Positions 17,146-42,729 of a stretch of 64,000 nt of DNA are shown here, piece by piece. Every line of letters starts with the position of its first letter. The first letter of the stretch is position 1. A program made the translations under genes and the position numbers. Source of the DNA: Phoronis australis (Eukaryota; Animalia; Phoronida); contig NMRA01000017.1 in the NCBI GenBank assembly GCA_002633005.1, forward strand, positions 454,260 through 518,259. The letters run 5' to 3'. A model generated the notes under the pieces. That model worked only from the letters and a program-made list of their open reading frames with translations. It did not search any database and was not told the DNA's origin.

Positions 17146-17394
17146 CTACTTGGCAATCTCAAAAAAGATAAAAGGTGGCGCTGGTAGTTCTGTGTCTGCG
17201 TCATAGATGGCACATTTCTTGAAGGCGCAAGGACTTTCCGCCCATGCATATCTAATACCCGACACTTGCTTTCCCTCGCAGGCGAAAGGGTACATGAGCG
17301 TGACTGTGTTCCCAGAAGTCCCAGCAACAGGACTAACTGCCCATCCCTTGTCATTTGGAGCACAGTACATCTGCTTTTGGGCAGTACAGCACAG
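17146..17394 (-). CDS. SIAE: SIAE-B last exon
   Basis: [11 protein letters not shown]...[36 protein letters not shown]; resembles the SIAE C-terminus (RYAW..PC, LPAPPF). Confidence 0.92.
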   Translation of the reverse strand: MCCTAQKQMYCAPNDKGWAVSPVAGTSGNTVTLMYPFACEGKQVSGIRYAWAESPCAFKKCAIYDADTELPAPPFIFFEIAK

Positions 17395-41300: not shown

Positions 41301-42729
41301 AACAGGCAATGATTGTAAAATCTCTTCTATTCAAACAAAAATTCCATTTTCGTTGTTTTTAGGGATTCTACGATTGTTGAGGACACCCAAAATTAATAAA
41401 AATCTTCATGTTACAGAACTTGAACATCGAAAACTATAAATATTGGTACTACACAAGGTTGGGTACCAGTACTTGATAACGCCAATTCGAAAACGATCAT
41501 GAATAACATCATTAGGACATAGTTGGTTCTGGTCTGTACCTTGAAGTTCTTACTACACAGTGCACGAGACATGCAGTTACGAGCAATTTCAAAAGTTCCT
41601 ATCGGAAAAGAAGGAAGAAATAGCGACAAAAAGTAACTGGAAGAAATTGTTTCCGAAACACTGAGTTCAGGCTATATTTTGTGTTCAGCCCAACAATGAG
41701 TTTCACTTTTGCTTGGAAAGTGATCCGTTACAGTACAAGATATGCCATACCAAGTACAGAAAAATTTGGGTAATGGTATGATATAATGTGCCACAATTTT
41801 GAGAACCAGTTTTCTCCACTGAATAACGTGCATCAAACTGGTTCTCAAAATGTGGGCACGCTATATGAGAATATTGCCCAAATTTGTACTTTCATGATGC
41901 GGCGGCCCAAAGAAAAATCAAACTGAGGTGCGGCGTACCTGAACAATTAGTTCATTATGCACTCAAAAGGACTGGCCAGAGTTCACCTTCCACATACTAG
42001 TTTACTTTCGGGCTACCTTTACCTTTATATTGTAAGATGTATTGTAATGAACTGGTACTATCAGGTGGGTTTGACAGATATAATTTGATAGCGTGCGCCG
42101 GTGCAGCTTATCAGAGTAGCAGAATTATAGTCTCTGTTAGGGTGTCTTACCTACTGATGCAGTTGTGCTTCCGGTGACTCATATCGAGCCTCTGTTAGCT
42201 ACTCGCTAACGGGCAATTGCCTATTAGCTGAATGGTTAGCGCGCTTGCTGGTTTTATGGGGATCGCTGGTTCGATTCGCGGGTTGGGTAATCTTGGCTAT
42301 TACTACTACCTATGCATAGCTAACGAATATGCATACTTATTCCCACACCAAAAGATCAAAGTAGAATGATGAAAAAGGTCCGAATGATAATTGACAGGTG
42401 ATTCTAAATTTGCTTTATAGCATTGGTGCAAAACTTTAGGCTATAAATGTACAGAAAAGCTTGTTAGGTTTCCTGGTTTCGCAGATGGCTCACCAAAGAG
42501 GATGACCTTGCAGCCAGTGGTCAGTGGTCGTTGTTGCCGGTGGACCACTGACTGATGTAGACCTAGTAAGCCAGCATTCTGCACGGTTAGGCAAATTAGA
42601 GATAACCTGTCTATGCGTCTGGAAACCGGGAAACGATAACAAAAACGAACATGTCAACAAAATGTTGCATTTACCTGCATAACAGAGAGAGCAGATCAGG
42701 CCCAAAGCAACAAGTAAACGGGAGCTCAT
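17146..42729 (-). CDS. SIAE: SIAE-B: sialate O-acetylesterase-like gene with internal granulin array (23 coding exons, ~1395 aa)
   Basis: Manually spliced GT-AG exons with compatible phases throughout. SIAE exons: 42675-42729, 40452-40619, 39386-39576, 37426-37564, 36713-36888, then 13 granulin exons (35958-25325), then 23505-23640, 22782-22918, 22021-22187, 18009-18201, 17146-17394. SIAE motifs: [62 protein letters not shown]. Confidence 0.88.
18009..18201 (-). CDS. SIAE: SIAE-B exon with catalytic His (SIHP)
   Basis: [35 protein letters not shown]...KAGFE; phase 2-0. Confidence 0.92.
22021..22187 (-). CDS. SIAE: SIAE-B exon
   Basis: [64 protein letters not shown], 167 nt. Confidence 0.92.
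22782..22918 (-). CDS. SIAE: SIAE-B exon
   Basis: [46 protein letters not shown]; phase 1-0. Confidence 0.92.
23505..23640 (-). CDS. SIAE: SIAE-B exon resuming the esterase domain after the granulin array
   Basis: [45 protein letters not shown]; phase-0 TAG acceptor, GTATG donor. Confidence 0.88.
25325..25453 (-). CDS. Granulin exon, terminal C-half only
   Basis: [46 protein letters not shown] acceptor, GTACGT donor, 129 nt, phase 0-0. Confidence 0.85.
26689..26913 (-). CDS. Granulin C-N exon (225 nt)
   Basis: [17 protein letters not shown]...[28 protein letters not shown]; phase 0-0. Confidence 0.9.
27179..27406 (-). CDS. Granulin C-N exon (228 nt)
   Basis: [17 protein letters not shown]...GCCPEPM; phase 0-0. 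Confidence 0.9.
27673..27897 (-). CDS. Granulin C-N exon (225 nt)
   Basis: [17 protein letters not shown]...GCCPVPM; phase 0-0. Confidence 0.9.
28458..28685 (-). CDS. Granulin C-N exon (228 nt)
   Basis: [17 protein letters not shown]...GCCPEPM; phase 0-0. Confidence 0.9.
28980..29204 (-). CDS. Granulin C-N exon (225 nt)
   Basis: [17 protein letters not shown]...[16 protein letters not shown]; phase 0-0; its frame is not in the ORF track. Confidence 0.85.
30174..30398 (-). CDS. Granulin C-N exon (225 nt)
   Basis: [17 protein letters not shown]...[16 protein letters not shown]; phase 0-0. Confidence 0.85.
30705..30932 (-). CDS. Granulin C-N exon (228 nt)
   Basis: [11 protein letters not shown]...GCCPQPM; phase 0-0. 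Confidence 0.9.
31229..31453 (-). CDS. Granulin C-N exon (225 nt)
   Basis: [11 protein letters not shown]...GCCPQPM; phase 0-0. Confidence 0.9.
31717..31944 (-). CDS. Granulin C-N exon (228 nt)
   Basis: [24 protein letters not shown]...[16 protein letters not shown]; phase 0-0. Confidence 0.9.
32101..32190 (+). mobile_element. tRNA-derived SINE head
   Basis: A box (agctcagtggt) and B box (gggttagattcc); no intact cloverleaf. Confidence 0.6.
32472..32594 (-). CDS. Granulin N-half exon (domain 2)
   Basis: [50 protein letters not shown], 123 nt. Confidence 0.88.
33747..33911. repeat. 24-bp tandem repeat, ~7 copies
   Basis: Unit aggaagcccagggcaagcaagctt. Confidence 0.95.
34236..34367 (-). CDS. 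Granulin C-half exon (domain 1) plus RHKR linker
   Basis: [53 protein letters not shown], 132 nt; absent from ORF track. Confidence 0.87.
35406..35652. repeat. 31-bp tandem repeat, ~8 copies
   Basis: Unit ataaggtaacaacatgcatctcataagaagt. Confidence 0.95.
35803..35958 (-). CDS. Granulin N-half exon (domain 1)
   Basis: [61 protein letters not shown], 156 nt; absent from ORF track. Confidence 0.85.
36713..36888 (-). CDS. SIAE: SIAE-B exon 5
   Basis: [59 protein letters not shown]; donor CAG|GTACCA, phase 0. Confidence 0.88.
37426..37564 (-). CDS. SIAE: SIAE-B exon 4
   Basis: [46 protein letters not shown]; 139 nt, same length as in SIAE-A. Confidence 0.9.
37710..38208. mobile_element. Non-autonomous hAT-type element (499 bp) in SIAE-B intron 3
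   Basis: Perfect 13-bp TIR CAGGGCTTGGAAT / ATTCCAAGCCCTG; direct repeat CACTCC on both flanks. Confidence 0.85.
39386..39576 (-). CDS. SIAE: SIAE-B exon 3 (catalytic Ser, GQSNM)
   Basis: [17 protein letters not shown]...[19 protein letters not shown]; 191 nt. Confidence 0.93.
40190..40295 (+). mobile_element. Probable LINE 3'-tail fragment
   Basis: ttgttgagggcccacttggaaagcagtgc...gaagaggccatcctcattttaaatatcacaataa resembles the reverse complement of 12810-12890. Confidence 0.6.
40452..40619 (-). CDS. SIAE: SIAE-B exon 2
   Basis: [56 protein letters not shown]; phase 1-1. Confidence 0.92.
41754..41889. repeat. Palindromic (hairpin) repeat; second copy at 43973-44052
   Basis: gtgcc..attttgagaaccag [loop] ctggttctcaaaatg..ggcac in both copies. 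Confidence 0.75.
42219..42290 (+). mobile_element. tRNA-derived SINE head
   Basis: tagctgaatggttagcgcg (A box) and ggttcgattcg (B box); stems degenerate. Confidence 0.55.
42675..42729 (-). CDS. SIAE: SIAE-B exon 1 (signal peptide)
   Basis: [18 protein letters not shown] then G|GTAAAT; typical signal peptide, phase 1. Confidence 0.82.

Follow-up and report, generated by a model that had tools for sequence, protein, structure and literature searches.

Can a secreted esterase carry a whole chain of granulins inside its catalytic domain? This question is raised by a locus of the phoronid Phoronis australis, which lies in a 64,000-nucleotide (nt) stretch of DNA (GenBank assembly GCA_002633005.1, contig NMRA01000017.1, positions 454,260 to 518,259, forward strand), hereafter the window, whose own numbering is used throughout. 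A first-pass annotation, made from the sequence letters alone, had described here a sialic acid O-acetylesterase (SIAE) gene with granulin exons between its exons 5 and 6. Public RNA data confirm a single-transcript chimeric SIAE-granulin gene. The gene is real, expressed and selectively maintained, and its domain architecture was not found in the databases or literature searched.

Organization of the chimeric gene

The gene lies on the minus strand and consists of 23 exons (10 SIAE and 13 granulin), and every intron is GT-AG; the exon coordinates were rechecked on the window. The SIAE exons span 42729-17146, and the granulin exons occupy 35958-25325, between SIAE exons 5 and 6. The spliced frame of 4188 nt is open and encodes 1395 amino acids (aa) and a stop codon. 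The granulin exons sum to 2577 nt (859 aa), and the insert begins after residue 243. The coordinates, exon number, insert length and frame given by the first-pass annotation were all reproduced on the minus strand with AG acceptors and GT donors, and phase 0, which it had claimed, holds for each junction from 36713 to 23640. Skipping from exon 5 to exon 6 would also stay in frame. SIAE exon 1 is predicted to code for a signal peptide; the hydropathy computed on the spliced protein peaks at 2.8 within the first 25 aa, with no later transmembrane window. The exons are as follows, where N-type exons code for the N-half of a granulin, C-type exons for the C-half, and CN exons for both.

42675..42729, minus strand: SIAE exon 1, ATG and predicted signal peptide; joint 42675>40619 in 13, 5 and 124 reads (runs X2, X3 and X4, described below)
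40452..40619, minus strand: SIAE exon 2, N-terminal beta-sandwich, assigned by homology
39386..39576, minus strand: SIAE exon 3, carries GQSNM and the nucleophile Ser130
37426..37564, minus strand: SIAE exon 4, splice sites and RNA
36713..36888, minus strand: SIAE exon 5, GGT block; its 3′ end falls in the loop that takes the insert, after residue 243
35803..35958, minus strand: G1, N-type exon, linker and N-half of granulin 1
34236..34367, minus strand: G2, C-half of granulin 1 and linker with the sole R-x-K/R-R (furin-type) site, residues 333-336
32472..32594, minus strand: G3, N-half of granulin 2; RNA and splice sites
31717..31944, minus strand: G4, CN exon
31229..31453, minus strand: G5, CN exon; G4>G5 joint among the joints listed
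30705..30932, minus strand: G6, CN exon; covered by reads
30174..30398, minus strand: G7, CN exon; hybrid of G8 (5′) and G12 (3′), probably from a shorter allele merged into the assembly
29325, no strand: single N at the changeover from a copied post-G12 intron to the pre-G8 intron; two alleles were probably joined here
28980..29204, minus strand: G8, CN exon
28458..28685, minus strand: G9, CN exon; G9>G10 joint among the joints listed
27673..27897, minus strand: G10, CN exon; RNA and splice sites
27179..27406, minus strand: G11, CN exon; RNA and splice sites
26689..26913, minus strand: G12, CN exon; RNA and splice sites
25325..25453, minus strand: G13, C-type exon, C-half of the last granulin and linker
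23505..23640, minus strand: SIAE exon 6, RNA and splice sites
22782..22918, minus strand: SIAE exon 7, RNA and splice sites
22021..22187, minus strand: SIAE exon 8, splice sites; outside the region mapped with reads
18009..18201, minus strand: SIAE exon 9, SIHP and catalytic His1251; outside the region mapped with reads
17146..17394, minus strand: SIAE exon 10, stop codon and, by homology, the C-terminal beta-sandwich; outside the region mapped with reads

Transcript evidence for the fusion

Four public runs from two studies were mapped on 22800-42760. Three of them (X2, X3 and X4) are raw stranded RNA reads, and the fourth (X1) is a contig set that is only guessed to be RNA. A second read mapping, at a 1% threshold, covered 33950-37650. 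The joint of exon 5 with G1 (36713>35958) was found in 12, 24 and 145 reads of X2, X3 and X4, respectively, and that of G13 with exon 6 (25325>23640) in 10, 11 and 142 reads; both joints, whose check by RNA the first-pass annotation had proposed, are also carried by X1 contigs. The ordinary SIAE joints gave similar counts (12, 25 and 115 for exon 4 to exon 5; 13, 21 and 172 for exon 6 to exon 7). The first mates lie on the plus strand, as expected from minus-strand RNA in most stranded libraries.

Within 33950-37650, the complete list of joints consists of exon 4 to exon 5, exon 5 to G1 and G1 to G2, with no others, and there is no sense-strand intron depth save at one repeat (36058-36305). 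No transcript start or 5′ exon was seen between exon 5 and G1 in the three RNA runs and the contigs. At the G1 acceptor, short loose read ends carry the final sequence of exon 5, with an agreement of 0.99-1. At the exon-5 donor, the joined reads compare with the depth as 12 to 12 (X2), 24 to 23 (X3) and 145 to 172 (X4). No loose end leading from exon 5 to exon 6 was present among the 23 listed of 35 rows of loose ends, the smallest listed raw-read rows holding 4, 4 and 20 reads. Inclusion of the granulins is near-constitutive in the three runs, and a skipped form is minor at most.

These data bear on the alternative that the granulin exons belong to a separate progranulin gene nested here, or to a block misplaced by the assembly, with SIAE spliced from exon 5 to exon 6. 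A single N and a 99% duplicated intron make a local assembly error likely, and skipping would stay in frame. However, both fusion joints are abundant in independent RNA runs, the interval between exon 5 and G1 is devoid of a 5′ exon, a sense intron signal or a start, and the assembly doubt touches the copy number only. This alternative is largely refuted and very improbable. A separate nested progranulin gene was rejected as a candidate because neither a 5′ exon nor a start was seen for it and exon 5 is the source of the reads that enter G1. The first-pass annotation had named, as the case against its own reading, transcripts joining 36713 straight to 23640 together with a separate granulin transcript; neither the skipped form nor the separate one was seen among the joints and loose ends listed from the RNA runs. 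Its concern over misassembly is borne out for the copy number by the N and the duplicated intron, but not for the fusion itself, which is supported by reads.

Two further observations concern the transcript. In X4, 17 molecule ends fall at 42741, 12 bases upstream of the ATG, which is a possible transcription start. Intronic repeats at 37710-38150, 41796-41858, 24438-24475 and 36070-36134 draw many reads whose loose ends stem from other parts of the transcriptome.

Esterase core and site of insertion

The core keeps all 108 columns that are conserved in at least 85% of 35 homologous domains. Before the insert stand the GQSNM motif with the nucleophile Ser130, in a column invariant in 35/35 homologous domains, and the GGT block (G223-G224). 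After it stand the WYQGE block (W1145-Q1147-G1148-E1149) and SIHP with His1251-P1252, this His being shared by 33 of the 35 homologues. The catalytic Ser and His are thus intact on opposite sides of the insert, as had been claimed from the sequence. F1247 lies four residues ahead of His1251. In the esterases of the CE20 family, an aromatic residue before the catalytic His has a role through its backbone (PMC12313940), and F1247 may be the equivalent of this residue. The residue at His-2 is Ser rather than Asp, and the water-mediated DxH triad of the bacterial enzymes has no match. At His+2, exon 9 (18009-18201) codes for Glu1253, where 28 of the 35 homologues have Arg.

Without its insert, the core aligns with the homologue P0512 over residues 20-529. 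The model of P0512 (pLDDT 91.5) gave a TMt of 0.94 to dog SIAE and of 0.88 to PDB entry 7KMM, and by homology the SGNH core is predicted to be flanked by N- and C-terminal beta-sandwich domains. When single exons were scanned with the Pfam SASA profile, exon 5 scored 13.2 bits against a cut-off of 24.8; the whole homologue P0512 scored 43 bits. The SGNH domain, which is continuous in SIAE, is interrupted here after residue 243 by the 859-aa insert.

The length of the interrupted loop can be followed through the family by the span between GGT and WNAM. Of 99 homologous motif pairs, 44 have a span of at most 60 aa, 6 of 61-150 aa, 47 of 203-234 aa and 2 of more than 260 aa; the span is 17-59 aa in most single-domain homologues and 897 aa in the chimeric protein. 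The two spans above 260 aa were rejected as pattern mismatches and not inserts. The class of 203-234 aa has the size expected where an ancillary beta-sandwich is present, as in bacterial CE20 enzymes. The profile match to PDB entry 9H4U breaks at the insertion loop, from chain position 221 to 407. The insertion point maps to residue 242 of the P0512 model, and the only internal low-confidence stretch of this model (246-252) is in the same loop. In CE20 enzymes both SGNH halves make one monolithic domain, and XacXaeA was crystallised after proteolytic loss of its insert (PMC12313940). Since the insert stands at the site of the bacterial CE20 ancillary domain, the core likely folds around it. 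Judging from the alignments and the model, the insert would very probably leave from a permissive surface loop at this site, so that the SGNH core can close.

The same loop carries other material in several homologues. P0135 (1057 aa), which combines SASA with a pectinacetylesterase, has there a 106-aa stretch with a small cysteine-rich module, and P0412 and P0447 have low-complexity insertions of 169 and 119 aa. Tandem double-SIAE proteins were also found (P0001, P0121 and P0002, from Mercenaria, Ruditapes and one further record).

The position of the insert gives some ground to an explanation in which the granulin chain stays attached as a eukaryotic stand-in for the CE20 ancillary domain, acting as a lid or binding arm to gate the active site or set substrate preference, or as a tether to membranes, lipids or partners. 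In CE20 enzymes, the ancillary beta-sandwich departs from this same insertion site to cover the active site and give the substrate cleft its shape, and the change from Arg to Glu beside His1251 hints at an altered specificity. The array itself speaks on both sides of this explanation, as described below.

Granulin array and its copy number

The assembled gene codes for 11 granulin motifs over residues 268-1083, each of them (11/11) with 12 Cys in the pattern C-C-CC-CC-CC-CC-C-C. The half-granulin motifs had no matches in 20 shuffles of the window, and all three granulin exons scanned exceeded the Pfam Granulin cut-off. The exons follow the order N, C, N, nine CN and C, all in phase 0, which is the N/C/CN scheme of progranulin given by Palfree et al. 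(PMC4527844). Linkers of 23-35 aa, in which dibasic pairs occur, lie between the granulins; the one R-H-K-R site comes after granulin 1.

Granulin 1, which adjoins the enzyme, is a divergent, non-repeated module, and this also favors the chain as an attached lid. On the other hand, about ten near-identical modules (87-97% in DNA), the number of which likely varies between alleles, suit a dosage cassette better than a fitted lid, and the linkers resemble the cleavable spacers of progranulin. A permanently attached chain is possible, if rather unlikely.

The CN exons are 87-97% identical in DNA and have common intron blocks, which fits expansion in place. The ratio of non-synonymous to synonymous differences among them (pN/pS) is 0.23; for the esterase, the corresponding dN/dS against the tandem paralogue described below is 0.258/1.204 = 0.21. 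The esterase and granulin parts are thus both under purifying selection.

The number of granulins is less certain than the fusion. G7 differs from G8 by 2 bases in the first 105 and from G12 by 1 base in the last 120. Its upstream intron is a 98% match to that of G8, while the intron downstream repeats the post-G12 intron at 99.1% as far as the N in position 29325, from which the pre-G8 intron continues. Such a hybrid of a 5′ G8 and a 3′ G12 is the product expected from deletion by unequal crossing-over. In X4, the depth is 94 for G7 and 104 for G8, about half each of the single-exon depth of 199. The total RNA depth of the array equals 5.5, 6.9 and 7.0 CN exons in the three runs, against 9 assembled; this is a rough figure taken from depth in bins, and it would fall with any loss of reads through allelic differences. 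The joints G5>G6, G6>G7, G7>G8 and G8>G9 were not among the 15 listed of 62 joints. In the simplest reading, the assembly has merged two alleles, a short one with 4 CN exons (6 granulins) and a long one with 8 (10 granulins). The count of 11 in the first-pass annotation holds for the present assembly, with 11 complete 12-Cys motifs; it is probably an over-count, as the hybrid G7, the N and the depth indicate, and the alleles likely carry about 6-10 granulins. A true allele of 11 granulins is possible.

Tandem repeats were also observed in two introns of the array: a 31-base repeat between G1 and G2 (35341-35712) and a 24-base repeat between G2 and G3 (33723-33938).

Tandem paralogue and probable origin of the fusion

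The window contains a second SIAE gene that lacks granulins.

1..10234, minus strand: tandem SIAE paralogue, exons 1-9 in the window, runs off the edge; without granulins

The paralogue has the same intron phases and 64% amino-acid identity with the chimeric gene, and its phase-0 intron 5 (2666-3495, 830 nt) is empty of granulin exons. In a quick tree among invertebrate SIAEs, the two genes are sister rows (SH-aLRT 99); the tree gave the pair no firm place among the invertebrate groups. The paralogue departs at 5 of the 97 conserved columns that it covers.

Because the paralogue has the same phase-0 intron without granulins, exon shuffling is indicated. A cassette with an N exon first and a C exon last, in phase 0 at both ends, can enter a phase-0 intron and leave the frame intact. 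We suggest the following order of events, each of which appears strongly indicated. A tandem duplication of SIAE would have come first, and a symmetric N...C granulin cassette would then have entered the phase-0 intron 5 of one copy. Subsequently, the CN exon-intron unit would have been multiplied by unequal crossing-over, with the copy number likely still varying between alleles.

The granulin-free paralogue next door is also what one might expect of a tolerated passenger, i.e., a progranulin cassette that borrowed the SIAE promoter and signal peptide, the two parts acting independently after cleavage and their linkage being without a selected function. The loop takes unrelated insertions of 75-170 aa in other homologues, and the fusion is known from one species only, with no fused relative among the matches listed. 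Against decay argue the near-constitutive inclusion, the purifying selection on both parts and the expansion of the array in place, although these do not argue against a neutral linkage. We regard a mere passenger as unlikely.

Several other features of this region were recorded. The His motif of the paralogue reads V-H-T-R-D-K, with Thr where Pro is usual. A partial copy of the start of its exon 7, with an AG acceptor of its own, lies at about 1135-1200 (minus strand), just upstream of the true exon 7. Between the paralogues (39386-40619 and 5735-9168, approximate), DNA identity is 81% for exon 2 and 79% for exon 3, versus 64-76% for the others, and gene conversion is possible. Between the two SIAE genes, at 13251-14113 (minus strand), there is a broken reverse transcriptase fragment with a YADD motif, which we take to be of LINE type. 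Elsewhere in the window, the same reading frame starts at 55617-55804 and at 58148-58335; the first adjoins a 435-base N gap, and a local duplication or an assembly overlap is likely.

Searches for a fused relative

The first-pass annotation had regarded the architecture as unfamiliar and proposed a search for proteins combining SASA and Granulin. Our searches agree with this view, as no protein with both domains was found among the matches listed. Exon 3, searched against longer proteins, gave no SIAE-granulin protein among the best 120 of 229 matches. With the full SIAE P0041 against proteins of 929-2650 aa, none of the best 120 of 203 had PF00396, and with the CN exon G8, none of the best 120 of 301 had PF03629. 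As a cross-check, 0 of 358 proteins carried both domains. Exon 5 against the representatives of 50% clusters gave a granulin motif in 0/150 (best 150 of 2358), and its best identity in the same set was 74%, which suggests that close relatives are absent from the databases. These negatives are weak, as the matches were listed in part, many of them were single exons and no close relative was present. An ESM Atlas search returned granulin clusters only.

In the open-access literature, no description of a SIAE-granulin fusion was found, and the granulin domain was not found in that on exon shuffling, among the matches listed. The supplement of PMC4527844, in the part available and one image file aside, has no entry for SGNH, sialate, acetylesterase, GDSL or hydrolase.

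One record met in these searches, P0274, is a moray eel model with FAM171A domains and 11 granulins, in which two neighbouring genes were probably merged. This guess comes from the adjacency of FAM171A2 and GRN in vertebrates.

Proposed processing of the precursor

Based on the above results, we lean towards a secretory or lysosomal polyprotein in which the esterase halves fold together around the granulin chain and the linkers are cut, giving a two-chain esterase and free granulins. The signal peptide would route the protein to the secretory/endolysosomal path, and there cathepsins or a furin-type enzyme would cut the 23-35 aa linkers; by analogy with progranulin, this step is moderately supported. 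One O-acetylesterase and 6-10 granulins would be delivered to the same compartment, and the granulins may aid trafficking before their release. The coupling of the esterase to granulin production, targeting or chaperoning that the first-pass annotation had suggested may likewise hold. Lysosomal cathepsins release granulins from progranulin, which travels together with prosaposin (PMC8815130). The basic pairs in the linkers and the R-H-K-R site would be compatible with such cuts.

Several points weigh against this explanation. The location of SIAE in mammals is disputed between the lysosome and the Golgi or secretion, human SIAE being placed in the Golgi and the medium (PMC8319020). In this loop of homologues, furin sites were found in 2/62 versus 0.5 expected and dibasic sites in 8/62 versus 4.5, so neither is clearly enriched. 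For rodent lysosomal SIAE, a cut near the loop that would yield one small and one large chain found no confirmation in the literature available. Glu1253 may change the substrate, which may not be sialic acid given that this residue stands in place of Arg. A minor skipped form is possible, given the 15 listed of 62 joints and the 23 of 35 loose-end rows. Finally, the single species from which the fusion is known applies here as well.

Still more tentatively, the gene can be viewed as a progranulin hard-wired into a glycan hydrolase, its precursor giving a two-chain O-acetylesterase and a copy-number-variable set of granulins by way of an ancient CE20 insertion site. We put this broader view forward as doubtful.

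Significance

With its empty paralogue adjoining, the gene makes a clean example of exon shuffling in phase 0. It also offers a natural enzyme-granulin precursor, in which targeting, activation and release are testable in one molecule. The roles of individual granulins in lysosomes are an open question (PMC9450144). Should the fusion prove conserved, with granulins that steer or activate the enzyme, it would serve as a natural Rosetta-stone test of granulins as trafficking tags or activators for lysosomal hydrolases, and it would be the first enzyme of a metazoan in which a canonical granulin array lies within the catalytic domain.

Comparison with known systems

The closest system is animal SIAE (CE20; PF03629; structures 8F9O-8F9R from dog, guinea pig and rabbit). 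The chimeric protein shares with it GQSNM, WYQGE, IHP, the Phe at His-4 and the signal peptide, and without the granulins its core reaches 44-49% identity, over about 510 aa, with the best SIAEs of molluscs, fish and cnidarians among the matches listed. In contrast, its SGNH domain is split by the 859-aa granulin array, and Glu replaces Arg at His+2.

The array resembles progranulin (GRN; PF00396), especially that of Aplysia and oyster, in its 12-Cys modules, N/C/CN exons and near-identical tandem repeats on split exons (PMC4527844). The best exon identity, 64-65%, is to mollusc progranulins among the matches listed. Unlike progranulin, the array has neither a signal exon of its own nor a paragranulin, and it is flanked on both sides by esterase sequence in one mRNA.

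Granulins joined to other proteins are known. The first-pass annotation had listed progranulin and plant proteases as their contexts, which is correct as far as it goes; a choanoflagellate GDSL/SGNH-like fusion and a Nematostella SGNH protein with a 12-Cys tail have to be added (PMC4527844; PMC2749447). Plant papain-like proteases of the RD21 type are likewise secretory/vacuolar hydrolases with a granulin (PMC4527844), but they carry a single terminal 14-Cys module on a cysteine protease and not an internal array in an esterase. The choanoflagellate protein XP_004989953.1 joins a granulin and a GDSL/SGNH-like hydrolase of the SGNH superfamily in one secretory chain, and Nematostella XP_001627333 has an SGNH domain with an atypical 12-Cys C-terminal tail (PMC4527844; PMC2749447). 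A granulin-SGNH esterase architecture is also listed by Smout et al. (PMC2749447). Going by their published descriptions, through which alone they were compared, the choanoflagellate and Nematostella proteins differ in having one module and a lipase-GDSL-2-like enzyme that is not SIAE. The empty paralogue argues for an independent, later origin in the Phoronis gene. According to the survey by Palfree et al., fusions of granulins with non-granulin proteins occur in plants, choanoflagellates and an apusozoan, and not in metazoa (PMC4527844). The RNA-confirmed gene, with canonical modules inside a catalytic domain, is a counter-example to the progranulin-only rule of that survey for metazoa.

The bacterial CE20 enzymes with an ancillary domain (Fl8CE20_II, 9H4U; PpCE20_II, 9EGA; XacXaeA, 7KMM) have a discontinuous SGNH domain split in the same GGT-WNAM interval. 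Their insert is one beta-galactosidase-like beta-sandwich of about 185 aa, which completes a water-mediated Ser-His-(H2O-Asp) site (PMC12313940), whereas the chimeric protein has a disulfide-rich granulin chain and a His motif of the mammalian type. The comparison suggests that one loop of the SGNH fold took unrelated domains, a beta-sandwich in bacteria and granulins in animals.

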